Assembly (NCBI GenBank): GCA_051531975.1
Contig: JAOPTT010000004.1
Coordinates: 226,243-290,242 of the forward strand
DNA from: Spirochaetaceae bacterium
GTDB lineage: Bacteria; Spirochaetota; Spirochaetia; DSM-2461
DNA: 64,000 nt
Direction: 5' to 3'
Shown here: piece after piece, positions 2,359 through 53,663 of the stretch
How positions within the stretch are numbered: position 1 is the first letter of the stretch
Layout of the letters: every line of letters starts with the position of its first letter
The notes under the pieces: generated by a model
Told to the model about the DNA's origin: nothing
The model's database searches: none
What the model saw: only the letters and a program-made list of their open reading frames with translations
Position numbers and translations under genes: made by a program

Positions 2359-4154
2359 ATATTAACTCTCTTTATTACGGGAATTGTAATGGTCATTAGG
2401 GCTCCGGTTCCTTTTCGGCTTGTAATCTCAATACCATAATCACTACCGTATATCAGTTGGATTCTTCCCTGTACATTACTTAACCCGATGTGTTCCCCTG
2501 AAGTATCGCTGGTTAGTGCGGCAATGTTATACATTTTAGCCTGTAGCTCAATCACCTGTTCCTCCGCCATACCAACTCCATCGTCTATAATCTGTATTTC
2601 TAAATTATCATCGATTACGTTGGCACTTAACTTCACTGTGCCCTTTCCATCTTTGGGTTTTAGTCCGTGTACGACAGCATTTTCTACTAAAGGTTGAATC
2701 ATCAGCTTAAGAACTTTTAAATCCAACAGTTCTAATGGAACATCCATATCCAACCTTATCCGCTGTTCATAGCGGTAATGTATGATATCGAAATATCTCT
2801 GCACCATTTCAAGTTCTTGCTTTAGCGTTACTTCTGGTTCGGAATATTCAATCAGATATTTCATCTGTTCAGATAACGCGATGATCATTTTTTGTGTATT
2901 CCCAGCGTTTTCATCGAGAGCTGACATCCGGATTATTTCCAATGTATTGTAAAGATAGTGGGGACGTATCTGGGTTCTTATGGCATTAAGATCGGTTTCC
3001 TTCTGTTTTATTTGGGCTATATAAGCTTTGTTAATGTGATCGTTCAGCCTTTTTACCATTCTGTTAAATGCTTGTGCTAACTGATGGATTTCATCGTGGG
3101 TTTTAACCCTGACCTCAGAAGTCAGATCTCCTGATTCCACGAGCTTCATCTGATTCATAATATTGTGGATAGGTTGAGACAGTTTTTTTGAGAATGCCAA
3201 GGCGATGGATACTAGAGCTATTATTAATAAAGATATGATTAAAAAGCCTAGTTTCTTTGTTTCATTGATTAACTGATAGATGGAACCTTGTTGAAGCTGA
3301 TAAATAATGAGCCAGTCTGCATTTTTTATCTTTCTGTAAAAAAGGTATCCACTATCGGAAAGTATTACTCCATTGTCATCTATTTGAGCCTGGGTTGATA
3401 TTTGATTATAAAAGTCATCAATTTTTGACTGTTCAACCTGTATAGAGGACTTAAATATCGGATAGCCTAGACCATCAAGGACATAAACTTGTTCATCCTT
3501 ATTCATTGATAGTGGGGAAATAATCTCTTTAATAAAATCGGTGTTAACTTCGATGGAAAATATAGAGATAACTTTTTCCACATCAGGAAGATACTTTATG
3601 TCGAGATAATTTCTAACTATACTAATAACAGTTGACTCAGAACGAAAAAAATAGTCTTCTTCGTGGGCTGGAAGTATCGTCAATTTTCTTTTGTTAAATG
3701 GAATCTGTTCTGTTTTAGGGTATCGAGACATATTAAATCCCTCTACAAAGGTAGAGGCATTCTGAGTAAAGTAGTTTTCTATATTTAGGTTTTCATCTAA
3801 TAAAAAAGCACTTTCAATATGTTTTTCTGAGTAAACCGTACTTCTTAGAAAGTCTTCAAGAAGATGGGATTGTCCTTTCTGTTGAATTTCAGTTATAGAA
3901 CCGAATTCCCGTGATTTGTAATTATATATTAACTTACTTATCTGGTTATATTCACTTATTTTCATTTCGATATTTTTACTGGCGTATAAAAGCATTTGAC
4001 TGTAGTTAGAGATCAAATCTTTTTCCATATCATCAGGTAGTGTTTCAAAGATGAAATAGCTAATACCTATAAGGGGTAGTAGGCCTACAATGGCAAAGGC
4101 CAATACAAATTTGACGAATATACTTTTAAATAAATATCGTTTTTCAGGTTTCAT
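2355..4154 (-). CDS. Sensor histidine kinase (YesM/LytS-like: 2 TM, HAMP, His_kinase, HATPase)
   Basis: QIRPHYLYNTL H-box, QPLVENAVVHG, DDGVG and HIGLSNV. Start moved from 4229 to ATG 4154 (MKPEKR), which follows TGaTAGAAT. Confidence 0.9.
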   Translation of the reverse strand: MKPEKRYLFKSIFVKFVLAFAIVGLLPLIGISYFIFETLPDDMEKDLISNYSQMLLYASKNIEMKISEYNQISKLIYNYKSREFGSITEIQQKGQSHLLEDFLRSTVYSEKHIESAFLLDENLNIENYFTQNASTFVEGFNMSRYPKTEQIPFNKRKLTILPAHEEDYFFRSESTVISIVRNYLDIKYLPDVEKVISIFSIEVNTDFIKEIISPLSMNKDEQVYVLDGLGYPIFKSSIQVEQSKIDDFYNQISTQAQIDDNGVILSDSGYLFYRKIKNADWLIIYQLQQGSIYQLINETKKLGFLIISLLIIALVSIALAFSKKLSQPIHNIMNQMKLVESGDLTSEVRVKTHDEIHQLAQAFNRMVKRLNDHINKAYIAQIKQKETDLNAIRTQIRPHYLYNTLEIIRMSALDENAGNTQKMIIALSEQMKYLIEYSEPEVTLKQELEMVQRYFDIIHYRYEQRIRLDMDVPLELLDLKVLKLMIQPLVENAVVHGLKPKDGKGTVKLSANVIDDNLEIQIIDDGVGMAEEQVIELQAKMYNIAALTSDTSGEHIGLSNVQGRIQLIYGSDYGIEITSRKGTGALMTITIPVIKRVNI

Positions 4155-40818: not shown

Positions 40819-42195
40819 TTAAGTTGGTAGTATAATATGAATTATAGTACCAGCTCCGTAGTTTGAATTTGCATAAATACTGCCTTTATGAGCTTTGATA
40901 ATTCCTCGACTTATGGCCAAACCTAAACCACTACCACCATGTTTCCTGTTTCTAGCACTATCTGTCCTGTAAAACCTCTCAAATATTTTCTCAAGATCTT
41001 CAGGTTTAATTCCACATCCGCTATCCGATATTTTTATATCTACATTTCCATTCAAACTTTTTGAACTTATTTCAATTTTTCCACCCTCTGGAGTATGTCT
41101 AAATGCATTTGTAAGAATATTTGTTAATACCTGTTTTAGTTTATCTAAATCTGCATCTATGGTTATTGGTGAATTAGCATTAATATACTTTAGTTCTATA
41201 TCTTTTTTTATTGCTTCGGGTTTAAATATATCCATACTGTTTTCAAATAGATCATTAATATTAAACTTACTTCTGTTTAGAGTCATTGCTCCTGAATCTG
41301 AACTAGAAAGTTGCTGAAGTTCTTTAACCAACCTAGACAGTACTAGAGTCTCCTGGTATATATTTTCCAAATGGACCATCTCTGGTTTATATACACCATC
41401 GATAATCATCTCTAAATTCCCTTGAATTAGAGCAACTGGTGTCCTAAGTTCGTGGGCTGAGTCTGCGATTATCTGTTTTCTCCAAATATCGTTATTTTCT
41501 AAAGTCTTTGCCATATTATTAAAAGAATTTGATAATATTGATATCTCATCATCACCACTTACATTAACTCGACTTCTAAAATTACCAGCCTCAATATCAG
41601 ATACTCCATTAGATAGAGCAGTTAAAGGGTTAGTGAGTTTTTTTGAAAAGTAGTTTGCAAACAGTATAGAAATTGTAAGAATAAAGATTGAAACAAGAAC
41701 AATTACCGATGTTGTCTTATTTAGAAATTTATCCTCTTTTTCCGATAATCCATTAGTTATCATTGTTCCTGTATAAACATAAGCGATGATTTTATTCTCA
41801 TATGTAATAGGTTCTCCGGTACCATTTTTTATAGTTTTAAATCTATTTTTTGGTATTGTGGAATATATTGTTTTCCCCCTAGTATCAGTTAATAGAATAG
41901 GGGGATTCATCATGTTGGGAGCCTCACGCTCCTGTCTTCTATTTTGCATCATATTATTTCTTTTAGGTACTGGTCGACGTAAAATATCCTCGACACCATC
42001 CCAACTATTTTGAAAGGAATAATAAGATTCTAGTGTATACGCAAGTTCTCTGTTGTAAGATATATCGTTCTGTCTTGCAAAGGTTTCGTATCCACTTCTG
42101 GTTGTATAATTAATAATTCCAACCATTAAAAAAGTGCCAGATAAAATTATAACTGTAAAAGCTAATACTATTTTATATTGTAAATTAAGTTTCAC
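40819..42195 (-). CDS. Sensor histidine kinase (BaeS-like; HAMP, HisKA, HATPase)
   Basis: AHELRTP, NILTNAFRH, DSGCGI and GGSGLGLAI motifs. Confidence 0.93.
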   Translation of the reverse strand: MKLNLQYKIVLAFTVIILSGTFLMVGIINYTTRSGYETFARQNDISYNRELAYTLESYYSFQNSWDGVEDILRRPVPKRNNMMQNRRQEREAPNMMNPPILLTDTRGKTIYSTIPKNRFKTIKNGTGEPITYENKIIAYVYTGTMITNGLSEKEDKFLNKTTSVIVLVSIFILTISILFANYFSKKLTNPLTALSNGVSDIEAGNFRSRVNVSGDDEISILSNSFNNMAKTLENNDIWRKQIIADSAHELRTPVALIQGNLEMIIDGVYKPEMVHLENIYQETLVLSRLVKELQQLSSSDSGAMTLNRSKFNINDLFENSMDIFKPEAIKKDIELKYINANSPITIDADLDKLKQVLTNILTNAFRHTPEGGKIEISSKSLNGNVDIKISDSGCGIKPEDLEKIFERFYRTDSARNRKHGGSGLGLAISRGIIKAHKGSIYANSNYGAGTIIHIILPT

Positions 42196-42898
42196 TGTTA
42201 TCTCCTTCAGTAAACCTATAACCTACACCCCAGACAGTCTCAATATAGTTGGGGTTCGAGGGAACTTCTTCTAATACTTTACGTATATTTTTAATATGTA
42301 CATCTATAGTTCTCTCATAACCCTCAAATATATCTTCCTGGAAAGATGTTAATATCTGTTCTCTGGTAAAGACTCTGCCTGGGTTATTCATAAATAATTT
42401 AACTATATTAAACTGTACAGATGTTAAATTGATCTTTAAAGAGCCTCTATGTACAATCATCTTCTGAATATCCATACAGATGTTATCAACATTTATTATA
42501 TTCTCAGGTTCTTTAGACTGTTTTTCTGATGAAGAAAATTCTACTCTTCTAAGTAGTGACCTAATTCTCGCGGCTAACTCTTTTAGGCTAAAAGGTTTTA
42601 AGATATAGTCATCTGCGCCCATCTCTAAGCCCATAAGTTTATCGGCTTCTTCAGCCTTAGCTGTAACCATAATAATTGGAACTGTGGATCTTTCTCTAAT
42701 ACGTCTGGTACAATCGATACCATCAATACCTGGCATCATAATGTCCATTATAATTAAATCTGGTTGTCCTGATATAAACATAGAGACTGCATCGACACCA
42801 TCGACTGCTGTTATAGTCTCAAAACCTACAGCTTCTAGGTAATCGCATATCATTTTTCTCATTTTCTCTTCGTCGTCTACAACTAATATTTTTTTCAT
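42185..42898 (-). CDS. OmpR-family response regulator
   Basis: LVVDDE, DIMMPG, KPFS, ERTIDVHIKNIR and ETVWGVGY. Start 42898 preferred over 42904 because TGgTATTAT lies 7 nt upstream. Confidence 0.93.
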   Translation of the reverse strand: MKKILVVDDEEKMRKMICDYLEAVGFETITAVDGVDAVSMFISGQPDLIIMDIMMPGIDGIDCTRRIRERSTVPIIMVTAKAEEADKLMGLEMGADDYILKPFSLKELAARIRSLLRRVEFSSSEKQSKEPENIINVDNICMDIQKMIVHRGSLKINLTSVQFNIVKLFMNNPGRVFTREQILTSFQEDIFEGYERTIDVHIKNIRKVLEEVPSNPNYIETVWGVGYRFTEGDNSET

Positions 42899-42917
42899 AT
42901 CCATAATAATACCATAT

Positions 42918-42953: not shown

Positions 42954-43505
42954 TTAATTCTCATCTTTATCCTTGTTCACATTTGATCTACCACCTCGGT
43001 GACCCTTAGGACCACGTCGGCCACCCATGTTTCCCATATAACCATAGTTCATATCTGTAAGATCTATTTCTATCTCTTTTCCATCAATAATAGCTTTAGT
43101 TAACATAAGTGTTTTTTCTTTACCATCCCACTGAAGTCTTCTTTGGTTTGTTTCGACACCTTCTATTGTCACTGTCATACCGTCTTTTACTTCTAGTTCT
43201 AATAGCTGTTCTACGGGTCCAACTATTGTAAAAACTACACCGTCTGAATCAATTGTTGGAAACTCATCGTTAATTAATGTTATTGGTCCAGTAACTGTAA
43301 CAATCTCTGAATTTTCTAAGAACTCTTCCATCATCTCTTTATGGTCGTCTTCACTCATACCACGTCCACGACCATCTTTGTCGTCAAATCTCATTCCACC
43401 TCTTGGTGAGTTTCTATAATCAACATCTTCTTCTTTGTTACTTGAAGCTGATAATAATAGCCCACATCCAGTTAATAATACTAAAAATAGTAATGTCTTT
43501 TTCAT
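42954..43505 (-). CDS. Exported protein with Gly/Arg/Met-rich flanks and an OB-fold-like core
   Basis: Signal peptide; RBS GGGAG; beta pattern VTVTG...VKDGMTVTIEG. Confidence 0.6.
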   Translation of the reverse strand: MKKTLLFLVLLTGCGLLLSASSNKEEDVDYRNSPRGGMRFDDKDGRGRGMSEDDHKEMMEEFLENSEIVTVTGPITLINDEFPTIDSDGVVFTIVGPVEQLLELEVKDGMTVTIEGVETNQRRLQWDGKEKTLMLTKAIIDGKEIEIDLTDMNYGYMGNMGGRRGPKGHRGGRSNVNKDKDEN

Positions 43506-43551
43506 CTTGTTTCTCCCTAAACTTTGTTATGATTTAAATCTAAACCCTAAA

Positions 43552-43568
43552 TGTGAAGGAAGTATGAA
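43552..43568 (-). promoter_or_regulatory. OmpR-type direct-repeat box
   Basis: TTCATA-N5-TTCACA on the - strand (11-bp period) upstream of the 43505 gene. Confidence 0.5.
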
Positions 43569-43630
43569 CAAGATCTGTTTCTTTTATTAAAGAAGCTTGG
43601 ATAGTTGTTTTTAGAAAAGGGATTGTTGTA

Positions 43631-44143
43631 TTAGTCCTTAAGGTACTCTTTAACTTCTGTTGATGTTGCATCTATAGACCCACTAACAAGTACAGGAGAT
43701 GAGCTAATATTCTCGGCATGCATCATAGAAGCAAGTCTCTGTAGGTTTGATAAGATCATATTTCTTTCCCACTCTTCTAGGCATTCTAATTTGCTTGTAA
43801 ACTCTTCTTGTAATACTGATGGATTATCTTTTAATAAATCATAGCTTTTATCTGTTAATACTATATTTACTTTTCTTTTGTCATCTAATGAACGAACTCT
43901 TTTTGCAAAATTATGTTGCTCTAATCTATCAAGAATACTTGTAACTGTAGCTTGGGAAAGGCTTACATTTCTAGCAATTGCAGAAATAGGTTGGTTCACA
44001 TTCTTTTTAATTTCTTTTAAGACTAATAATTGTGGACCTGTTAACCCATATAGTTTTACTAACTTCTTTGATTGTAGATCTATAACTCTAATTATTTGTC
44101 TTAATGTAGATACAACAAGATCTGTATTTTCTGAACTGCTCAT
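43631..44143 (-). CDS. MarR-family regulator, EctR/CosR-like
   Basis: LRQIIRVIDLQSKKL...GLTGPQL, LSQATVTSILDRLE and LEEWE..MILSNLQRLASMM.A...SSPVL. Start moved to ATG 44143. Confidence 0.8.
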   Translation of the reverse strand: MSSSENTDLVVSTLRQIIRVIDLQSKKLVKLYGLTGPQLLVLKEIKKNVNQPISAIARNVSLSQATVTSILDRLEQHNFAKRVRSLDDKRKVNIVLTDKSYDLLKDNPSVLQEEFTSKLECLEEWERNMILSNLQRLASMMHAENISSSPVLVSGSIDATSTEVKEYLKD

Positions 44144-44265
44144 ATGAATACGATATATTAAAAACTCAGTAAAGTTAAGTCTCAAACACTATTTAGCACT
44201 TTTATATTTATAGCCCTAAATTTTACTGCCCTAAGTAAAATTTAGACGATTATCGACTACTCACA

Positions 44266-44301
44266 TTGATTATGTGTCTTAAATTCATTAGTATACTAAG
44301 T
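44266..44301 (+). promoter_or_regulatory. Promoter with a palindromic operator over the -10
   Basis: TTGATT-N17-TAGTAT; perfect palindrome TTAGTATACTAA at 44288-44299. Confidence 0.6.
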
Positions 44302-44357
44302 AATTATTGATATGTTCGTAACGTTCTATTCAATAATGCTAATAACAAAGGAACAAT

Positions 44358-45482
44358 ATGAAAATTTTAAAATTAAAAAAAAGACTCTCTGGAGATCATG
44401 ACTTTAAGGGTCACACTATATTAGGTTCTATGTGTACAGAGCCTCATTATCTTGCTAAAAGAACATTTAGAAGATTTTTATCAACTAACGTTGGTGATCC
44501 AGGACTTTTTCCAAACTTAATAGATTTAGAAACAGAATATATTGCATCGTTAGGATATTTATTACATGACAATACAGAAGCCAAAGGTATGGTTGTATCT
44601 GGTGGGTCAGAAGCAAATATTCTTGCAATGTGGAGTGCCAGAGAGATGGCTGGTGAAAACAAAAGAGATGTTATAATACCAGAAACATGCCATTTTTCAT
44701 TTGATAAAGCAGCTATGATGTTAGGTTTAAACCTAGTAAAGATACCAGTAGATTCAAAACATAAAGTAAGAATAGATCTTGTAGAGAAAGCTATAAATGA
44801 AAACACTATGGCTATTGTAGGTATTGCTGGAACAACTGGTTCTGGTGCCTGTGACCCAATAGACGGATTATCGGAATTAGCAGTTAAGCATAACTTATAC
44901 TTACATGTTGATGCCGCATTTGGAGGTTTTGTATTTCCTTTCTTAGATAATCCTCCACTATTTGACTTTAGACTTCCAGGTGTTAAATCTATAACAATGG
45001 ATCCACATAAAATGGGCCGTGCTGTTATTCAATCTGGTTGTATTATCTATAGAAACCAAGAAGTATACGATTCTGTTAAAGTACCTGTTGGTTATTTAAG
45101 TGGTGGTAAAACTATTAATAACTCTATCTTGGGTACAAGAAGTGGAGCATCCATTGCATCTTCTTGGATGGTTTTTAACTATTTAGGTTTTGAAGGATAT
45201 AAAAAAGAGGTTGATAAATTAATGTTATTAACAGCTTGGTTTGCAGAAGAGGTAAAAAATATACCTGAGTTAAATACAATAATAGAACCTGAATGTAATA
45301 TTGTTGGTATATGTTCTTCTGGGGATGTTGATATTAAAGTACTGTTAAAGAAGCTTCGAAATAAGGGTTGGGCGTTATCTGAGTGGTCTAATTATGTACG
45401 GATTACAATGATGCCTCATGTTAAAAAAGCCTACTTAAAGAAGTTCTTGAAAGATATTAAAAGTATTTTAATTACCCTTTAA
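44358..45482 (+). CDS. mfnA: Group II PLP-dependent decarboxylase, archaeal MfnA-like (L-tyrosine/L-aspartate decarboxylase)
   Basis: ILGSMCT, NVGDPGLF, SGGSEAN, HFSFDKA, GIAGTT, HVDAAFGG and DPHKMG (PLP lysine). Confidence 0.78.
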   Translation: MKILKLKKRLSGDHDFKGHTILGSMCTEPHYLAKRTFRRFLSTNVGDPGLFPNLIDLETEYIASLGYLLHDNTEAKGMVVSGGSEANILAMWSAREMAGENKRDVIIPETCHFSFDKAAMMLGLNLVKIPVDSKHKVRIDLVEKAINENTMAIVGIAGTTGSGACDPIDGLSELAVKHNLYLHVDAAFGGFVFPFLDNPPLFDFRLPGVKSITMDPHKMGRAVIQSGCIIYRNQEVYDSVKVPVGYLSGGKTINNSILGTRSGASIASSWMVFNYLGFEGYKKEVDKLMLLTAWFAEEVKNIPELNTIIEPECNIVGICSSGDVDIKVLLKKLRNKGWALSEWSNYVRITMMPHVKKAYLKKFLKDIKSILITL

Positions 45483-45809
45483 TTTAGTATCTAAGAAAGC
45501 TTTTATAAACCTAAATCTCTAATACCTATGCAATCGAAGTATTTGTGGCCATGTATAAATTATGATGTAATTGTATCATATTAATCCACTTTCCATTTTC
45601 ATCTATACAGTTTTTAAACCAGCAATAGATTACATATATTATATATGATTTAATAATATTTTTTTCATTGCTGCTAAGTTTTGCTAATGGATTCCTAAGA
45701 CTTATATCTTCAATTATCAATCTGAATCCCTTTTTATTACTATTTTTTTATATTTAAATTTTGCACCTATTAAATTATGGGTCTGGTTTTCTTTTATGTA
45801 AATCCAACT

Positions 45810-45872
45810 AAAGTTACATTTTTGGCTATTTACTAGTGAATCCATGGAGTTATACGGTCAAAATGTAACTTT
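45810..45872. repeat. 13-bp perfect inverted repeat, candidate regulator sites
   Basis: AAAGTTACATTTT (45810-45822) / AAAATGTAACTTT (45860-45872). Confidence 0.6.
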
Positions 45873-45949
45873 TATATAACTTTTTGCTTCACTCTTTTTG
45901 TCCTGAATTGTGTAAAATTCAAAAATTAAGAATACATTAGGAGAAAGTG

Positions 45950-46513
45950 ATGACACAAGTTACAAAGAATGAAGTAGAAAGATCATGTGAGTTTACCGAA
46001 GAATTATGGAATGAGATTGCTCAAAGTATTTGTTTAATGAACGATTTTGATTCAGAAACAAAGACAAAAGTTTTAAAACATAAAGTGCTTAAGACTATAG
46101 CCGCAACACCATATTTAGCAGGTTGTAATAACCCTTTAAGAACTGCAATGAGCCATGTAGCTATATACTTTTTAGCAGCATCGAAAGCTGGGAAACAGAC
46201 TTTTGTTCATACAGCAGATGATGATAATAATTATTTATTAAGACTTGAAAGGATCTCACATTTTGATGGTGGGAATAAACAAGTTATACAAAAAGCTATG
46301 GATCTATTGGCATTAGTTATGATTGAGGATTATAGTAGGGATATGGACGAAGATAGACTAAACAATAAATATAACCCTTTTATTTCAGGAACATGGCACT
46401 ATCTTAAAATTAAAAATGAATTAATTGGCAGAATTTCAAAAAATATATCTTCAGAATTAGATGAAATATTAGATATACATGAAGCTCATAATACATATTG
46501 GGATATTCTTTGA
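45950..46513 (+). CDS. Hypothetical helical protein with an Asp-rich motif
   Basis: RBS AGGAG 45939-45943, 6 nt before ATG 45950; EDYSRDMDED...KYNP; C-terminus YWDIL. Confidence 0.75.
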   Translation: MTQVTKNEVERSCEFTEELWNEIAQSICLMNDFDSETKTKVLKHKVLKTIAATPYLAGCNNPLRTAMSHVAIYFLAASKAGKQTFVHTADDDNNYLLRLERISHFDGGNKQVIQKAMDLLALVMIEDYSRDMDEDRLNNKYNPFISGTWHYLKIKNELIGRISKNISSELDEILDIHEAHNTYWDIL

Positions 46514-47361
46514 GTGATTCAATATTTCTAATACAAAAAAGGATCTCTAAAATATTAATTATTATGGGCTCTATAGCCATAGTATTTAATGTTTTTACGG
46601 CAATATTAAATTCCTATTCTCTCATTCAATTAATACTTATGCCTGGAATTTTATTTGTAGCTATTTTTGTAATTGCTCTTTTATTAACTCATAATGTTGA
46701 TAAAAGAGCTGTAAGAATTTTCCATGTTACATTGTTTTTATTAAATGCATTTATATCAATTCTAGATCAGTATGACTCTTTCTATGGATTGGGATTATAT
46801 ATTCTTGGCATTATTATCATGTACCGTTATAGGTATTTTAAGAAATTTCCAAAGATTAAAATATTAACTCTGATGATATTTTTAATAATCACTGTTGAAT
46901 TATCTTCATATATAATAAGTAGAGACTTTTTAGCTTTTTCATTGTCTGTAATTATATTTGTTATCTTTTTTATATTGCTAATTTTTACTCTGTATAAAGA
47001 TGAAATTAATAAAGTTCTGTTTTTAGAAAAAAATAACAAAAAATCTATAGATGCGATGATAATTGAGAGAAACAAAACACTTGATGATATGGAATTATTA
47101 AAGAAAAAAGTTGCTTTACTTGAATCAGATATATCAAATGCTAAAAGTTCCCCAAAGGGGTTAGATGAATATAGCTTCACTGTTAAAGAGCTTGAAGTCA
47201 TTGAATTATTATGTCGAGAGAGACTAACTAACCAGGAGTTATGTGATAGGTTATTTATCTCGGTAGGAACAATAAAACAACATTTAAGTCACATTTTTAA
47301 TAAATGTGGAGTTAAAAATCGAGTAAATGTAATTTATCTTTTTCAGGATAATTTTAAATAG
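46510..47361 (+). CDS. Multi-TM one-component regulator with C-terminal LuxR HTH
   Basis: About 5-6 hydrophobic helices, a coiled coil, then FTVKELEVIELL...LTNQELCDRLFISVGTIKQHLSHIFNKCGVKNR. TTG 46510 overlaps the upstream TGA. Confidence 0.82.
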   Translation: MSDSIFLIQKRISKILIIMGSIAIVFNVFTAILNSYSLIQLILMPGILFVAIFVIALLLTHNVDKRAVRIFHVTLFLLNAFISILDQYDSFYGLGLYILGIIIMYRYRYFKKFPKIKILTLMIFLIITVELSSYIISRDFLAFSLSVIIFVIFFILLIFTLYKDEINKVLFLEKNNKKSIDAMIIERNKTLDDMELLKKKVALLESDISNAKSSPKGLDEYSFTVKELEVIELLCRERLTNQELCDRLFISVGTIKQHLSHIFNKCGVKNRVNVIYLFQDNFK

Positions 47362-47433
47362 AATACCTATCCTCACTTAATGTTCTAATAAAAAAATAAT
47401 TCCATATCTCTCTGTTATCTGATATTATGACAC

Positions 47434-50235
47434 ATGGAAATATTTGTACTTATTTTAGTTATAATAGCACTGGTTGCTGCAAGGCTTTTAAGAAATAGAA
47501 TCATCGATTTGGAAGATAACCAGGAAACTCTTTTTAAAAGGATAAAATATCTTGAAAGTCTTAATAATGTAGAAAGTATTAAACCCTTAGAAAAAGAGAC
47601 AGAACTTAAGGTAACTAGAGTTGCTGTACCACCTCCTGTTTATAAAGAAGTATTATCATCCCCAGTTATAAAAAAGGATGTAAAAAATAAGGTTATTAAA
47701 AGTAATAAACCACCAAAGGAAAAGGGTATATTGTTAAATAAATTCCTTGAAAATGGTACAGGTATAATAGGTGTTTTAGTCCTTGTTATGGGGTTAGCAT
47801 TTCTAGGAATATACTCAGCTATTAATATGTCAGCTTTTCCAAGGTTTTTAATGTTTTGCCTATTTAGTTTAGTGCTATTTGGTGGATCATATATACTAGA
47901 AAAAAAGATGAAGTGGAACCGGCTATCTTTATGGCTTAGAAGTGCAGCTGGAGCAATATTCCTTTTCTCTTGTATCGGTTCTACAGGTATCCCTGGTTTA
48001 GTTTGGATCGATAATCAGATATCAGGACTAATGCTTATTATAGCAGGAATTCTATTAAATATTGTTTTAGGTGGTATTTCTAAAAAAGAAGTAGTCTCAT
48101 CTACCCACCTGTTTTTAAGTCTAGTAGCACTTGCAATAGCTCCTCCAACCATGTCTATTTTAATAGTTGCAGGAGTTATCACAATCTATGGAATATATCT
48201 AACTTATAGAAAGAAGTGGGATATAAACTTGGTTATAATAATTTCAATGTTTGCTATTTTCCATACCTATTGGCACTATAGGTTGATAGATTTAGGAACG
48301 GATTTAAGCATCTCCCAGAGTGCTGTTTCTCTATCTTTAATAGTTTTAATAACACTCGCTACACTATTTTCTCATTATAGAACAATTTATAGTGTTGAGA
48401 AGTTTGAATCTCTACCTTTCTTTACTCACTTTCTAAACTGGTGTTATTTAGCAGTAGGAATATATCTATATAACTCTATAATTCCTTTTGAATTTTTCAT
48501 GTTCTCTGGGGGATCAATATTAGCCCTAGTTATTGCAAATAGAGCAACAAAACTTAATATTGGTTGGTTAAAGGTAACTGATACACTAGTAGCAAATTTA
48601 TTAATGATATTAGCTGTACTTTCACTTTATCCTAAAGGTATCAATCTATTTTATATCTCAGAAATTCTATTCTTAGAGTCTATAATATTTTTAATTGTTA
48701 TGTGTTTCCAGAAGCAAAAATTACTTAGTAAAATCGCTTACATTTTAGTATTTTTATTTAGTATCATAATCTTTATATCTAACTGGTCTGATGATGTAGA
48801 CTTTAAAACTCCTTTATTGGTTATTACCATTTTAGGATTTGGAACACTCTACTACTTAAAAAGTTCAAAACCATCATTTTTTAAAACTATAGATCTAAAA
48901 TATCGTTCAATATTATCTATAATGTATCCACTTTATGCATTCTCAATTTTTACTAATCATATAGAGTCTATGTGGATAACAGCACTATTTGTTGGTGTAA
49001 TGGCTCCGGTTTTAATATTCAGAAACATACTAAAAAATGATATTGTTTATAGATTTTCTAAAATAGTTATTGTTCTTGTAAGCTTGACTTCTATTATTGT
49101 AATTGCTGATAATTCTGTATCTTTTGGAACTATTTATGCAATCCCACTACTAGTTGGGTTAATACTTTTAACAATACTGTCATACTCTTATAAAAAAGAG
49201 TGTTATAAAAATAGATTCCTAATAGTTTTTACAGGATTAACTTATGTTGCTATAACGTATGTTATTTTTAGTCAAATATCAGAATTTTTACCTGGTGTTA
49301 TTTGGCTTGTAAGCATTTTAGGGAACTTGCTTCTCTCCAGTTTCTTAGTTAATAGAAAACCGAATTTAAAATTCCTAGCTAATGTAAATAAGTATCTATA
49401 TGTGCTCTCTTATATTATTTTTGCAATTTATGTTTTAGTTAATATATTTGTATACTTAGACATCGATTCAACTATTGGTATATTCAAAACTAGATACCTT
49501 TTAGAAGCTTTAGCTATTGGTATTTTAGTTTATTGGATTCAGAGTAAAGGGACTAAAATTAAAGGGTTTGTTTTAGAGATCGCCCTACTATTTATTATAT
49601 TAGCAATTGTAACTGAGGTTAATTATAAAGAGAGATCTTTAGTTTTAATCATAATCGCTATAGCCTCTTTAATGTTAAATAAGATTAAAGGTAACAATAG
49701 TCGATTACGTTTTTACTCTGTAGTCCTTAGTTGGATTTCAGCTGTTTTTATAGCAACTACTAGCTTGAGTAATCACAACTGGTTCTCAAGCATTACAGCT
49801 ATAGTTATTTTTTGTATCTATCTAGTTATGTTAAATAGATATGGTAAATTAGATAAAGTAAGATTCCCAAAATATCTTAGTAGCTTAGGACATCTTAGTA
49901 CTAAAGTTCACCATAAAATTAACTTATGGGTTTTTTATCCATTTTTTATATCTGTCGCCTTATACATTTATTTTACATTTAACCAGAATATAATAACCCT
50001 CTGTTTTGTGCTGTTAAGTTTAATAATATTTATTTTAAGTATCGCATTAAAAGAGGAGAACTTTAAAATAATATCTCTTTTAGGTTTAGGTGCCAGTTTA
50101 GTTAGAATGATATTTGTAGACTTATCTAATTCTGGGACAATAACACGGGCCTTAGTATTCATAGGTGTTGGTTTAGTTATGGTTTTTATGAATATTATCT
50201 ATGTTAAATTTAATAGAAATGATTCTTTGGAATAA
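47434..50235 (+). CDS. Large polytopic membrane protein (DUF2339-like)
   Basis: N-terminal TM plus coiled coil; GIIGVLVLVMGLAFL; C-terminal FVDLSN..TITRALVFIGVG. Confidence 0.75.
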   Translation: MEIFVLILVIIALVAARLLRNRIIDLEDNQETLFKRIKYLESLNNVESIKPLEKETELKVTRVAVPPPVYKEVLSSPVIKKDVKNKVIKSNKPPKEKGILLNKFLENGTGIIGVLVLVMGLAFLGIYSAINMSAFPRFLMFCLFSLVLFGGSYILEKKMKWNRLSLWLRSAAGAIFLFSCIGSTGIPGLVWIDNQISGLMLIIAGILLNIVLGGISKKEVVSSTHLFLSLVALAIAPPTMSILIVAGVITIYGIYLTYRKKWDINLVIIISMFAIFHTYWHYRLIDLGTDLSISQSAVSLSLIVLITLATLFSHYRTIYSVEKFESLPFFTHFLNWCYLAVGIYLYNSIIPFEFFMFSGGSILALVIANRATKLNIGWLKVTDTLVANLLMILAVLSLYPKGINLFYISEILFLESIIFLIVMCFQKQKLLSKIAYILVFLFSIIIFISNWSDDVDFKTPLLVITILGFGTLYYLKSSKPSFFKTIDLKYRSILSIMYPLYAFSIFTNHIESMWITALFVGVMAPVLIFRNILKNDIVYRFSKIVIVLVSLTSIIVIADNSVSFGTIYAIPLLVGLILLTILSYSYKKECYKNRFLIVFTGLTYVAITYVIFSQISEFLPGVIWLVSILGNLLLSSFLVNRKPNLKFLANVNKYLYVLSYIIFAIYVLVNIFVYLDIDSTIGIFKTRYLLEALAIGILVYWIQSKGTKIKGFVLEIALLFIILAIVTEVNYKERSLVLIIIAIASLMLNKIKGNNSRLRFYSVVLSWISAVFIATTSLSNHNWFSSITAIVIFCIYLVMLNRYGKLDKVRFPKYLSSLGHLSTKVHHKINLWVFYPFFISVALYIYFTFNQNIITLCFVLLSLIIFILSIALKEENFKIISLLGLGASLVRMIFVDLSNSGTITRALVFIGVGLVMVFMNIIYVKFNRNDSLE

Positions 50236-50281
50236 CGATATATTGCCCAAATTATTATTTTAATTCTTTCCACTTTTTTAT

Positions 50282-50312
50282 TTGACTTTGACCTTAGGGC
50301 AAGGAATATCCT
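50282..50312 (+). promoter_or_regulatory. MerR-type promoter (19-bp spacer with dyad)
   Basis: TTGACT-N19-TATCCT; dyad TTGACCT-T-AGGGCAA in the spacer. Confidence 0.65.
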
Positions 50313-50342
50313 TAGATTAGATTGTAAATTAAGGGGATAAAA

Positions 50343-51044
50343 ATGGTCGAAGTAAAAAGTTTGTATAAAAAATACGGTGATAAAACTGCTGTAAATAACA
50401 TCTCATTTAAAATAAACCAAGGTGAGATTTTTGGTATTATGGGGCCAAACGGTGCAGGTAAAAGTACTACACTTGAATGTATTCTTGGAACAAAAAAGAA
50501 AGACTCTGGAGATATTCTCATATTAGGTGAACACAAAATAAAAAAAGAGATGTTTAATAATATTGGAGTTCAGTTTCAGGAATCTTCTTACCAAGCTAAT
50601 ATAAGGGTTTCAGAGATTTGTGAGTTTACATCTGCACTATATAATATAGATATAGACTATTTAGCTATGTTAGAAGATTTTAACCTTTTGGATAAAAAAT
50701 CCTTAGTAATATCTTCATTATCTGGAGGAGAGAGACAAAAACTATCTATATTATTAGCATCTATTCACTCTCCTGAACTGCTTTTTTTAGATGAACTAAC
50801 AACTGGGTTAGATCCCATTGCAAGAAGGGAGACCTGGAAATTTATTAAAAATCTAAACAATAATGGAACCACAATTATTATTACATCCCACTTTATGGAC
50901 GAAGTTGAATTTTTATGTGATAGGGGATTTATATTAAAAAATGGTGTAATAAAAGCAGAGGGTTCAATTGATCAATTGGTAACATTTGGTAAAGGGAAAA
51001 ACTTGGATGAATCATATATTAATATTTTAGAAGGGGTTTTATAA
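50343..51044 (+). CDS. ABC-2 type exporter ATP-binding protein
   Basis: GPNGAGKST, LSGGE and LFLDELTTGLD motifs. Confidence 0.93.
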   Translation: MVEVKSLYKKYGDKTAVNNISFKINQGEIFGIMGPNGAGKSTTLECILGTKKKDSGDILILGEHKIKKEMFNNIGVQFQESSYQANIRVSEICEFTSALYNIDIDYLAMLEDFNLLDKKSLVISSLSGGERQKLSILLASIHSPELLFLDELTTGLDPIARRETWKFIKNLNNNGTTIIITSHFMDEVEFLCDRGFILKNGVIKAEGSIDQLVTFGKGKNLDESYINILEGVL

Positions 51045-51757
51045 TGAAGAGGTTGTTTATTTTAACATGGACAGAACTAAAGTTATCAATCCGTAATTTT
51101 GATGCAGTTTTTTTTGGTATCGTTATGCCACTAATAATTATAACAGTCATATATTTTATTGATAAAAGTATCATTACAACAAACTTTGGAGCGTACATCT
51201 CTATTGGAATTTGTGCTATTGGCTTAATGGGGCTTCCTATAACTTTATCGGATTATAGAGAGAAGAAAATCTTAAAAAGACTACAGGTTACACCTATAAC
51301 CCCAAGGACTTTGTTATCTATTCAAGTTTTAGTACAATCTATAATGGCTATAAGTTCTGCATTATTAACAACCGTTGCTGGTATTCTGTTTTTTAAAGCT
51401 AATGTACTTTCAAATGTGTTTCCAACTATTGTAGCCTATCTGATTGTTCTGATTTCGATATTTTCTATTGGTCTACTAATTACAAGTATATCTCCAAATG
51501 TAAAAAAGGCTGGTTTTATATGTTCATTAGTATATTTCCCAATGTTACTATTTTCAGGAACTACAATACCTTTATCAGTATTCCCGGTCGCAGTGCAAAA
51601 AATTTCTATGGTACTACCTTTAACCCAGGGTGTAGTACTGTTAAATGGTGTCATTGATGGGACATCGATCTTTAACTTTCCTGTCCAATTAACTATTTTG
51701 GTTCTTGTCTCCATAATTTCCATTTTAACTTCTATTAGGCTGTTTAAATGGAGTTAG
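51044..51757 (+). CDS. ABC-2 type exporter permease
   Basis: Six TM helices; YREKKILKRL; FSGTTIP. Confidence 0.88.
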   Translation: MKRLFILTWTELKLSIRNFDAVFFGIVMPLIIITVIYFIDKSIITTNFGAYISIGICAIGLMGLPITLSDYREKKILKRLQVTPITPRTLLSIQVLVQSIMAISSALLTTVAGILFFKANVLSNVFPTIVAYLIVLISIFSIGLLITSISPNVKKAGFICSLVYFPMLLFSGTTIPLSVFPVAVQKISMVLPLTQGVVLLNGVIDGTSIFNFPVQLTILVLVSIISILTSIRLFKWS

Positions 51758-51878: not shown

Positions 51879-53663
51879 TTGTTAAAAAAATTATTTCTAT
51901 TAAGTTTTTTATTAACTATGTTTTATTGTTATTCTGATCAATTCATAAATTTAGACAAAGATATAGGACAATATAATGTTGGTAAATTTATTGAGTATTA
52001 TGTAGATTTAACAGATGAATTGACTATAGATGATTTTCTAGAAATGAATACCGTTGAATTTACAAGATCAGAAGTTGATAACTTAAATTTTGGATTTTCC
52101 CAAGATGTTCATTGGATAAAGTTTAATATAAAGAACTCACAAATTACAGAACAAGAAATTCTTTTAGAATATCAACACCCTCATATGGATAATGTTGATA
52201 CTTTTGTTGTACGTAATAATAAAGTTGTAAACTTGTTTCATGGTGGAGACTTTTATGCATATGATTATAGAGAGATTGATTATCAGAACTTAGTTTACCA
52301 GATATTTATTCCTCCCAATTCTAAATCAACTATTTTCATGAAGTTTAAAACCCAAGGTTCTATGCAAATTCCTATTAAGTTATGGTATCCAATACCTTTT
52401 GCAGAGAAAATTAATAAAGAACAACTTTTCTTAGGTATTTATTTTGGAATATTAATTGGACTATTGCTTTATAATATCTTCCTATTTATTTTTATAAAAG
52501 ATAAGAACTACTTCTATTACCTATTATATTTAGTTGTAATAATACTATTACAACTTGGGATAAATAGATTAGATGTAGAATATTTGTGGCCTAATTTTAT
52601 CTATTTTGCCAATATTAGTTTTCCTATGTTTTACAATTTAGGTTTCATTTTTGCAGGTTTATATTCTAGGTCATTTTTAGAAACAAAGGTCAGAGCACCA
52701 CTCCTGGATAAGTTAATTTTAGTTTTTATGGGAATTGGTGTTATTGGTCTTCTGTTATCTTTTTTTGTTGGATATAATGCGGGGTTCTTTCCTGTTCTCT
52801 ATATCCTGGCTATATTTGAACCTATTATTTTACTTATTGCGGGTATTGTTTGTTGGAAACGGGGTTTTAAAACTGCAAGATATTATACTATTGCATGGTC
52901 AGGATTAATAGTCTCATCATTAGTTTTTAATTTACGTAATATAACTGTATTACCAAGTGTATTTATTACAGATTATAGTCTCTATTTTGGAACTACTTTT
53001 GAAGCACTGTTTTTATCAATAGCATTAGCAGATAGGATTAATACTATTAAAGCAGAAATTCTAACAGTTCAGCAGAGGTTTACTAAGGAACTTGAAATCA
53101 AAGTCTTAGATAGAACTTTAGAATTAGAAGAGATGAATAAAAAGTTATCTACACTTTCAAATGTAGACGGTTTAACAAGTTTATATAACAGGAGATATTT
53201 TGATTCATCTATGAACAAAGAGTGGGAAAGGTCGGTTAGATTAAAACTTCCACTGTCGCTTATAATACTAGATATTGATCACTTTAAACTGTTTAACGAT
53301 AATTATGGACATCAGGCAGGAGATGACTGTATTAAAAGAGTTGCAAAATGTTTATTAAAATCTGTAAATAGAGCTACTGATATAGTTGCCCGTTATGGTG
53401 GTGAGGAGTTTGCTATTATTTTACCAAACTGTGATAGTGATGGGGCAATGTTTGTCTCAAGCATTGTCCAGAATGTAATACTAGAAGAAGCAATAGTTCA
53501 TGGCTTCTCAAGTGTCTCAGATACTATTACCCTTAGCATCGGTGTTTCTACAACACTGGCAAATAATGATCAAAATTTTGATTCTTTAATTAAATTAAGT
53601 GATGATGCTTTGTATATAAGTAAAAAATCAGGTAGGAATAAAATCTCAATTTTAGATACCTAA
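51879..53663 (+). CDS. Diguanylate cyclase with 7TM-DISM sensor
   Basis: LNFGFSQDVHW extracellular domain, seven TM helices, DGLTSLYNRR, DIDHFK, RATD I-site and RYGGEEF. Confidence 0.92.
   Translation: MLKKLFLLSFLLTMFYCYSDQFINLDKDIGQYNVGKFIEYYVDLTDELTIDDFLEMNTVEFTRSEVDNLNFGFSQDVHWIKFNIKNSQITEQEILLEYQHPHMDNVDTFVVRNNKVVNLFHGGDFYAYDYREIDYQNLVYQIFIPPNSKSTIFMKFKTQGSMQIPIKLWYPIPFAEKINKEQLFLGIYFGILIGLLLYNIFLFIFIKDKNYFYYLLYLVVIILLQLGINRLDVEYLWPNFIYFANISFPMFYNLGFIFAGLYSRSFLETKVRAPLLDKLILVFMGIGVIGLLLSFFVGYNAGFFPVLYILAIFEPIILLIAGIVCWKRGFKTARYYTIAWSGLIVSSLVFNLRNITVLPSVFITDYSLYFGTTFEALFLSIALADRINTIKAEILTVQQRFTKELEIKVLDRTLELEEMNKKLSTLSNVDGLTSLYNRRYFDSSMNKEWERSVRLKLPLSLIILDIDHFKLFNDNYGHQAGDDCIKRVAKCLLKSVNRATDIVARYGGEEFAIILPNCDSDGAMFVSSIVQNVILEEAIVHGFSSVSDTITLSIGVSTTLANNDQNFDSLIKLSDDALYISKKSGRNKISILDT

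Follow-up and report, generated by a model that had tools for sequence, protein, structure and literature searches.

A Candidate Two-Gene Sensory Module of Spirochaetota: A Small Protein of Terpenoid-Synthase-Like Fold Beside a Six-Helix Membrane Domain

A 64,000-nucleotide stretch from a Spirochaetaceae bacterium (contig JAOPTT010000004.1, positions 226,243 to 290,242; hereafter the window) carries two overlapping genes, here called gene 1 and gene 2, which we regard as a two-gene sensory module conserved in Spirochaetota. Gene 2 encodes a membrane-anchored one-component transcription regulator composed of six transmembrane (6-TM) helices, a long helix and a LuxR-type helix-turn-helix (HTH). 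Gene 1 encodes a small protein whose predicted structure resembles enzymes acting on prenyl diphosphates. We see in them a membrane sensor equipped with an accessory protein for its input, drawn from two families that lack annotation. Our preferred reading, which we hold tentatively and at a little under even confidence, is that gene 1 engages an isoprenoid diphosphate and, as input partner, serves a new MASE-like 6-TM sensor. The literature on DUF5685, on LuxR and transmembrane one-component regulators and on ComQ/ComX yielded no description of the gene pair; since the family lacks a name that could serve as a query, its absence from print is not established.

Linkage of the Two Genes and Exchange of Output Domains

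Gene neighborhoods were sampled in Spirochaetota genomes, and 43 distinct loci with a gene 1 homologue were examined. A gene with the 6-TM domain stands beside gene 1 in 35 of them, with a LuxR HTH as output in 26 and a kinase in nine; seven loci lack a 6-TM gene, and one at a contig end is unjudgeable (L038). A preliminary description of the pair had expected gene 1 homologues to be linked to genes for transmembrane LuxR proteins (TM-LuxR), and this linkage holds with the kinase neighbors added to it. The sensor gene mostly lies 3' of gene 1 on the same strand and often overlaps it; the two are divergent at L008 and L010 and convergent at L105. The genes flanking the pair vary between loci while the pair itself persists. 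Moreover, a second overlapping pair, paralogous to genes 1 and 2, is present elsewhere in the same genome. Given this paralogous pair and the pairing at 35 of 43 loci, genes 1 and 2 are not chance neighbors.

The outputs differ between lineages. In f33, a lineage of low guanine-plus-cytosine (G+C) content, all judgeable gene 1 homologues (7 of 8 loci) are followed by a protein that begins with the same 6-TM domain. A gene 2 profile (24 sequences) matches these proteins at positions 4-143 or 4-185 (E 1.5e-11 to 1.7e-7). Three whole f33 sensor proteins measure 473-480 amino acids, and HATPase_c ends the two that were tested (1.1e-10 and 4.6e-13). On a high-G+C Rectinemataceae contig (L099), a gene 1 homologue overlaps, via ATGA, the gene of a 411-residue sensor protein with the 6-TM domain (hhalign 89%, E 2e-6), HisKA_2 (3.6e-24) and HATPase_c. 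HATPase_c or HisKA_2 was confirmed in all three kinases tested among the nine kinase-type neighbors. Because the same 6-TM domain beside gene 1 carries either a LuxR HTH or a kinase, gene 1 is tied to the membrane domain and not to the output. The exchange of outputs therefore argues against gene 2 being a mere local regulator of gene 1, and marks the 6-TM domain as a modular sensor in the manner of the MASE domains.

Viewed from the regulator, the 38 genomes of the window's own family contain 29 TM-LuxR matches of full length. Nineteen abut a gene 1 match and two more stand in a tandem array behind one; one at a contig start is unjudgeable, and seven are orphans with no gene 1 nearby. In view of these seven orphans and the seven gene 1 loci lacking a sensor, neither gene strictly needs the other in cis. 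At the level of genomes, 17 of the 38 have both genes, three gene 1 only, one TM-LuxR only and 17 neither, counts that are descriptive only as the genomes are related. The identity of gene 1 between loci correlates with that of the TM domain (r 0.82) and of the HTH (r 0.71); since the pairs share their phylogeny, this correlation is set aside and not used as evidence.

Gene 1 lies behind a chemoreceptor gene at two loci without a sensor gene (L013, L016) and stands alone at three others (L018, L019, L101). These three share their flanks, an rlmH-like gene upstream and a gene of 436-450 amino acids downstream, with the TM-LuxR-bearing loci L102 and L103. Hence the receptor appears to have been lost there, with gene 1 and its terminal Trp retained.

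Several single loci depart from the common arrangement. In the gene 1 homologue of L015 (G029:C110:11525-15034) an in-frame TAG shortens the open reading frame (ORF), and a transposase-like ORF occupies the expected position of the sensor; this cassette is probably disrupted. The homologue of L104 (G005:C138:1-3800, ORF 643-1209) ends in VMDC, without a terminal Trp and without an adjoining sensor gene. A third 6-TM LuxR paralogue of the window's own genome, of 286 amino acids, has no gene 1 and is one of the seven orphans (L108, G000:C15:40176-44006, ORF 1477-2337); it sits directly behind an adenylate/guanylate-cyclase-like gene. Elsewhere, three 6-TM LuxR paralogues stand in tandem behind a single gene 1 homologue and share its strand (G028:C142:10503-14054, partly L014). 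L098 (G061:C6:93500-97600; ORFs 3424-3969, 2803-3408 and 1210-2631) combines, in this order, a gene 1 homologue, a 201-residue output-less copy of the 6-TM domain and a 473-residue 6-TM histidine kinase.

Architecture of the Gene Pair

The features of the pair are listed by their positions in the window:

45939-45943 (+): Shine-Dalgarno-like AGGAG, 6 nucleotides ahead of the gene 1 ATG, read directly from the sequence
45950-46513 (+): gene 1, ATG at 45950, stop TGA at 46511-46513, 187 amino acids by ORF reading
46220-46243 (+): gene 1 D91-D92...R98, a partly conserved acidic pair with a nearly invariant Arg after it
46340-46378 (+): gene 1 D131-x3-D135...K140-Y141-N142-P143, the most conserved motif of the family
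46496-46510 (+): gene 1 C-terminus Y183-W184-D-I-L, an aromatic residue and a nearly invariant Trp, then a short variable tail
46510-47361 (+): gene 2, 283 amino acids (gene call P0153), TTG start at 46510-46512, in another frame than gene 1
46510-46992 (+): six-helix membrane domain of gene 2, modeled helices 2-33, 45-60, 66-86, 91-106, 114-136 and 141-161
46822-46860 (+): basic loop between TM4 and TM5, Y-R-Y-R-Y-F-K-K-F-P-K-I-K, the best conserved stretch of the membrane domain
46996-47145 (+): long single helix in the model, residues 163-212, its length varying among homologues
47173-47337 (+): LuxR-type HTH of gene 2, Pfam GerE E 4.6e-9, model matching DosR, DegU and NarL

Direct reading of the sequence bears out the translational coupling given in the preliminary description, with the TTG start of gene 2 sharing TTGA with the stop of gene 1. 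An in-frame TTG at 46498 offers an alternative upstream start for gene 2 (287-amino-acid frame), and a GTG at 45947 is in frame with the ATG of gene 1. Residues 90-92 of gene 1 are DDD, residues 126-147 are EDYSRDMDEDRLNNKYNPFISG, and the protein ends in HNTYWDIL, which makes W184 the fourth residue from the end; the earlier account of a helical protein with DDD and this terminus is thus accurate for both sequence and model.

Gene 2 had been described as a membrane protein of about five to six helices with a coiled coil and a LuxR HTH but no receiver domain. Its AlphaFold model (predicted local distance difference test, pLDDT, 85.9) agrees and settles on six helices within the hydrophobic N-terminal 161 residues, followed by the long helix and the HTH. 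GerE/LuxR is matched at residues 226-280 of the 287-amino-acid frame (36.2 bits against a cut-off of 23.5), and other HTH families match the same stretch below threshold. The modeled HTH superposes on the C-terminal domains of DosR, DegU and NarL with Z 11.2-11.4 and a root-mean-square deviation (rmsd) of 1.2-1.3 Å. A receiver domain (Response_reg) found no match in gene 2 at E <= 0.1, and gene 2 does not classify as a two-component response regulator. To judge from the model, the long helix is likely a dimerizing coiled-coil linker; in the 24-sequence alignment it is short or absent in some homologues.

The loops of the 6-TM domain are only a few residues long in the model. No Pfam family, MASE and 6TM_PilS included, matched residues 1-200 of gene 2 at E <= 0.1. 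The Atlas leads for the domain, MASE7, MASE2 and 6TM_PilS, score 0.88-0.89 and, all lying below 0.9, are weak; the structural matches include the six-helix region of adenylyl cyclase Rv1625c (Z 8.5, 124 residues). The TM4-TM5 loop has the consensus YKYGFL..K, with K117 (P0153 numbering) present in at least 90% of 24 aligned sequences, and by the positive-inside rule it would face the cytoplasm.

Two groups of known proteins invite comparison. MASE-type domains (MASE2, MASE7, 6TM_PilS) are likewise compact and multi-helical with minimal loops and precede varied outputs as a module; the outputs behind the 6-TM domain are a LuxR HTH, a HisKA_2 kinase and another HATPase_c kinase. The 6-TM domain differs from them in that it has no Pfam MASE match and comes with a dedicated soluble partner gene, which to our knowledge has not been described for MASE domains. 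Transmembrane transcription regulators such as ToxR/ToxS, CadC and BcrR share with gene 2 the combination of TM segments and a DNA-binding domain on one chain. ToxR works with a partner protein from the adjacent gene. However, the partner of ToxR is periplasmic and chaperone-like, whereas that of gene 2 is cytoplasmic with an enzyme-like fold. Unlike single-pass regulators with an N-terminal winged helix, gene 2 has six helices, a predicted N-in/C-in arrangement and a C-terminal LuxR HTH. It falls under the definition of a transmembrane regulator, at least one TM region and a DNA-binding domain in one chain, as worded in the accessible part of a survey (PMC10269533). The same part reports an enrichment of membrane-bound transcription regulators in Spirochaetota, and GerE and LuxR do not appear in its main text as far as that part extends (PMC10269533).

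The Gene 1 Family and Its Conserved Residues

Gene 1 has no Pfam or NCBIfam match at E <= 0.1. An exhaustive HMMER search of 1.84 billion representatives, clustered at 50% identity, recovered 232 representative clusters at E <= 1e-3, of which 138 reach E <= 1e-10. Lengths among the best 150 representatives range from 66 to 218 amino acids, and these include no fusion to the sensor. The sole name found for family members is 'hypothetical protein', for example for one Rectinemataceae bacterium protein. Word-indexed homologue searches matched few proteins (2, 3 and 14); the gene 1 sequence alone found no match in genome contigs, and a 3-sequence alignment found none in metagenome contigs. A homologue is present in 20 of the 38 genomes of the window's own family and, counting the window's genome, in 14 of 401 genomes of an even Spirochaetota sample. 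Neither the sequence nor the model of gene 1 contains a signal peptide or hydrophobic stretch, and gene 1 is a cytoplasmic protein.

Residue conservation was counted over 131 sequences of at least 150 amino acids. R98 is kept in 129 of these, D135 in 128 and N142 in 127, closely followed by P54, G108, P143 and W184 (126 each). D131 and Y141 occur in 114 each and D91 in 110, with position 92 being D in 79 and N in 28; the residue just before W184 is aromatic in 101. Gene 1 therefore has one invariant D-x3-D pair of acidic residues (D131, D135), the other candidate, D91-D/N92 with R98, being degenerate. The first of these, continuing into KYNP, is a candidate Mg/diphosphate site, and D91-D92...R98 is possibly a degenerate first Asp-rich motif.

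In a 74-sequence alignment the terminal Trp is kept in 71 members, and it is followed by two residues in 32 and three in 18. Among the 71 it is third or fourth from the C-terminus in 50 and second to fourth in 55. The conserved Asp motif and the near-terminal Trp before a short variable tail, both anticipated in the preliminary description, are thus real features of the family. The tail does not vary as it does in ComX: it begins with YWD in four relatives of 53-76% identity, with YWDV in three, and hence is not hypervariable.

Fold of Gene 1

The AlphaFold model of gene 1 (pLDDT 94.9) is all-helical with 12 helices. When it was compared by VIA-align with 48,161 representative chains, all 50 of the best matches listed were prenyl-diphosphate enzymes, 48 of them soluble synthases or transferases and two UbiA-type. 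They include trans-prenyl synthases, MoeN5, Ord1, terpene cyclases, squalene synthase, DabA and UbiA-type transferases. MoeN5 is the best match (Z 8.3, rmsd 4.7 Å, 164 of 187 residues) and a heptaprenyl diphosphate synthase the second (Z 8.1). A second structural comparison is concordant and places residues 60-183 on the C-terminal half of linalool and isoprene synthases (rmsd 3.5-3.6 Å, 114 residues). We conclude from this model that gene 1 represents the class I terpenoid/trans-prenyl synthase fold at half its length. The isoprenoid-synthase-like fold proposed for gene 1 at the outset is therefore backed by the 50 best structural matches listed, whereas the profile and Foldseek searches gave it no significant support.

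Membership in a described family was examined at the level of sequence. PF00348 (polyprenyl_synt) matches none of 74 family members at E <= 0.05 and does not match gene 1 at E <= 0.1. Alignment of the family by hhalign with 17 spirochaete polyprenyl synthases was non-significant (P 0.15 and 0.36); the former alignment puts the D91...R98 stretch on DDxxD...RRG of the synthases. Likewise, gene 1 has no Pfam match to PF00494 (SQS_PSY), and hhalign (P 0.071 and 0.12) covers only the second motif, at residues 110-146, where DYxRDxxxDxxxGKYNP is set, non-significantly, on RDxxED...YxP. DUF5685 shows some likeness: two of 74 gene 1 family members match it weakly (best E 0.017), and hhalign sets its motif IDAxDDFxxDxKxxKxN on D127-N142 of gene 1, again non-significantly (P 0.09-0.14). 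It differs in its length of about 270 amino acids and its N-terminal Cys motif, and genomes with gene 1 homologues can bear it as a gene of its own. Gene 1 is thus outside every described family of the terpenoid-synthase fold. Compared with MoeN5, the squalene/phytoene synthases and the small subunits of geranyl diphosphate (GPP) and heptaprenyl synthases, it has about 60% of the length and much shorter helices. Furthermore, those proteins are metabolic enzymes or subunits not linked to sensors, in contrast to the sensor-linked gene 1.

Three candidates for gene 1 were rejected. A trypanosome surface glycoprotein, matched in a profile search of the Protein Data Bank (PDB) at E 0.13, was dismissed as chance. 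HD-domain phosphohydrolases, which gave weak Foldseek rows (E 0.5-2.4), are absent from the 50 VIA-align matches listed and were set aside. The Protein Atlas pointed to generic helical-repeat clusters (0.90-0.92) with recognition below threshold and was disregarded. The DUF5685 genes of the f33 genomes (L057-L064) may represent a remotely related sister family whose site is of the gene 1 kind.

Possible Modes of Action

Gene 1 retains its invariant acidic pair, Arg and Asn in a fold whose known members bind Mg-prenyl diphosphate. We propose that it is the dedicated cytoplasmic input partner of the 6-TM domain; signaling would run from gene 1 to the sensor through contact of the two products. 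It would bind a Mg-(iso)prenyl diphosphate and either convert it into, or present it as, a lipophilic cue, which the 6-TM domain might read from the cytoplasmic leaflet. The cue would alter the geometry of the linker helix and hence how the HTH binds DNA; a histidine kinase would be driven by this input pair in other lineages. As the loops of the 6-TM domain are only a few residues long, the sensor probably reads a cue in the membrane or at its cytoplasmic face. The window's own genome has two polyprenyl synthase genes and can therefore make prenyl substrates.

Several results weigh against this proposal. The sequence of gene 1 shows no homology to isoprenoid enzyme families in the searches made, with profile-profile P values of 0.07-0.36. 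Foldseek against the PDB returned nothing below E 0.4 (best 0.42), its non-significant top rows being terpene synthases, a geranylgeranyl diphosphate (GGPP) synthase and CrtM, and the PDB profile search returned nothing below E 0.13. A Z of about 8 with an rmsd of 4-5 Å can be reached by helical bundles through a common arrangement (VIA-align, Z below about 13), so weight is placed on the exclusiveness of the match list and not on the score. The canonical DDxxD first motif is absent, with no Asp at +4 after D91. Finally, seven loci have gene 1 without a sensor and seven TM-LuxR genes have no gene 1.

An alternative, which we consider unlikely, is that gene 1 is a ligand-free, non-catalytic protein partner, working as an anti-activator or co-sensor and docking either to the linker or to the cytoplasmic side of the 6-TM domain. 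It would then gate dimerization and DNA binding, and its fold would be an evolutionary remnant like that of the prenyl synthase small subunits that lack catalytic activity. That the linkage follows the TM domain whatever the output is compatible with such a role, as is the lack of a canonical DDxxD motif. Non-catalytic members of the fold do occur among the listed structural matches, namely the GPP synthase small subunit (3qkc), a complex of GGPP synthase with its recruiting protein (5xn6) and a heptaprenyl synthase heterodimer (9kp1). On the side of the sensor, the best conserved part is the basic loop that probably faces the cytoplasm, and one of the weak Atlas leads is 6TM_PilS, PilS being a sensor of a protein inside the membrane. 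However, conserved residues such as D135, R98, N142 and D131 are found more typically at sites for ligands, metals or catalysis than at protein interfaces. Gene 1 also persists at the seven loci without a sensor, and the best 150 representatives include no fusion of the two.

The preliminary description itself had proposed that gene 1 unites ComQ and ComX in one chain and prenylates its own near-C-terminal Trp, and that gene 2 is a fused ComP+ComA-like receptor. The lipidated tail could be clipped off as a pheromone, or stay attached as a membrane-inserted ligand of the 6-TM sensor; the latter variant, acting from the inner leaflet, meets fewer difficulties than a released pheromone. ComQXPA, PalQ/PalX and StheQ/StheX indeed resemble the pair in that a gene of trans-prenyl synthase fold stands beside a polytopic sensor with LuxR-type output (ComP to ComA). 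The parallel on the receptor side gains some support from the histidine kinases fused to the same 6-TM domain in other lineages, polytopic sensors with kinase or LuxR-type outputs being common to both systems. In ComQXPA, however, the sensor and regulator are separate and joined by a phosphorelay, whereas gene 2 is one chain with no phosphorelay. Trans-prenyl synthases have their C-terminus at the entrance to the active site. The listed matches include Ord1 (Z 6.0), an indole prenyltransferase with the same fold. The gene 1 Trp, present in 126 of 131 sequences, falls in the same C-terminal window as the substrate Trp of ComX-type peptides, being third or fourth from the end in 50 of 71 and second to fourth in 55. 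According to the accessible parts of the respective sources, the modified Trp of ComX is third or fourth from the C-terminus and must be second to fourth for ComQ(RO-E-2) to act (PMC5331326), that of StheX is second from the end (bioRxiv 10.64898/2026.08.29.745113), and PalQ is selective for a C-terminal Trp (PMC10853753).

The enzyme and the tail fit this proposal less well. ComQ is a Pfam polyprenyl_synt member of 286-309 amino acids (PMC4008528, in its available text), while gene 1 has 187 amino acids, no PF00348 match and only P 0.15-0.36 to polyprenyl synthases, and is not a member of the ComQ family. Of the first DDxxD motif, on which ComQ-type enzymes depend as far as the available text of PMC5331326 and of the StheQ preprint (bioRxiv 10.64898/2026.08.29.745113) goes, gene 1 retains only D91-D/N92. 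ComX is a separate, hypervariable peptide of 52-73 amino acids, whereas the Trp tail of gene 1 belongs to a confidently folded domain (mean pLDDT 91 for residues 181-187) and conserves YWD in the four relatives. Since genes 1 and 2 overlap, there is no room for a separate precursor peptide gene. Moreover, the sensor exposes hardly any loop on the outside that an external peptide could contact, neither a signal peptide in gene 1 nor a protease or exporter gene in the cassette was found, and seven loci retain gene 1 without the receptor. Within the available parts of these sources, ComQXPA occurs only in Firmicutes in a 2014 census (PMC4008528) and a 2026 preprint extends ComQ-like pairs to Chloroflexi. 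None of the computational findings named in advance as telling against the proposal, namely a different fold, a non-conserved Asp motif or Trp, or homologues not linked to TM-LuxR genes, was observed for genes 1 and 2. Nevertheless, we regard self-prenylation as quite unlikely, and the other options raised in the preliminary description, a small isoprenoid signal or a protein partner, account for the evidence no less well than a ComQ+ComX fusion.

Finally, it is very improbable that the genes are not mechanistically coupled, with gene 2 a local operon regulator or gene 1 an unrelated, co-transcribed small enzyme: such a view could appeal to the seven sensor-less loci, the seven orphan TM-LuxR genes and the divergent, not co-transcribed genes of L008 and L010, but the constant partner is the membrane domain and not the DNA-binding domain, the kinase versions keep the adjacency in two further lineages, the pair persists among differing flanking genes, and start and stop codons overlap at several loci.

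Membrane sensor domains that are polytopic and lack outside loops are widespread, most of them without an assigned signal. For the 6-TM sensor, the shape and invariant residues of gene 1 suggest isoprenoid diphosphate chemistry and thereby a concrete class of ligand. If gene 1 makes or presents an isoprenoid cue, lipid-carrier or isoprenoid metabolism would be linked directly to spirochaete gene control. Were gene 1 to prenylate itself, it would provide the first example of a protein signal prenylated on Trp beyond the ComQ family, and the first to carry enzyme and substrate on a single chain; it would couple isoprenoid supply or cell density to transcription (LuxR) or phosphorylation (kinase). 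A prenylated C-terminal Trp would be categorically new, with ComX-type chemistry in a new phylum and a new architecture. Both unannotated families, the 185-amino-acid protein (about 230 clusters at 50% identity) and the 6-TM domain, are now open to naming and to a working hypothesis.

Surroundings of the Gene Pair

The sequencing run that contains the window carries the label marine metagenome. The G+C content of the gene pair region is low (0.27-0.34) and equal to that of its surroundings. An Rfam scan of 43000-51000 matched no family. A promoter and terminator scan was uninformative, with 13 promoter-like sites against 16.9 expected and no terminators. Upstream of gene 1 lies an AT-rich intergenic region of 465 nucleotides (45483-45949) with short ORFs on the minus strand only; it has no Rfam match, and its promoter-like signal does not exceed the shuffled expectation.

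Beginning 72 nucleotides 3' of gene 2, a gene at 47434-50235 (+) encodes a protein of 933 amino acids with an N-terminal coiled-coil-like stretch and many membrane helices. Its match to DUF2339 is sub-threshold (E 0.066, 12.4 bits against a cut-off of 33.6), and the gene is not kept beside the pair at other loci. On the other side, 44358-45482 (+) encodes a pyridoxal phosphate-dependent decarboxylase whose match to the archaeal-type tyrosine decarboxylase MfnA exceeds the NCBIfam cut-off (409.6 bits against 299.4), which is unusual for a spirochaete; the gene adjoins a divergent MarR-family regulator at 43631-44185 (-). Further away are a HAMP-HisKA-HATPase kinase with an OmpR-type response regulator at 40819-42904 (-), an ABC-2 transporter pair at 50343-51757 and a 7TMR-DISM diguanylate cyclase at 51879-53663 (+).

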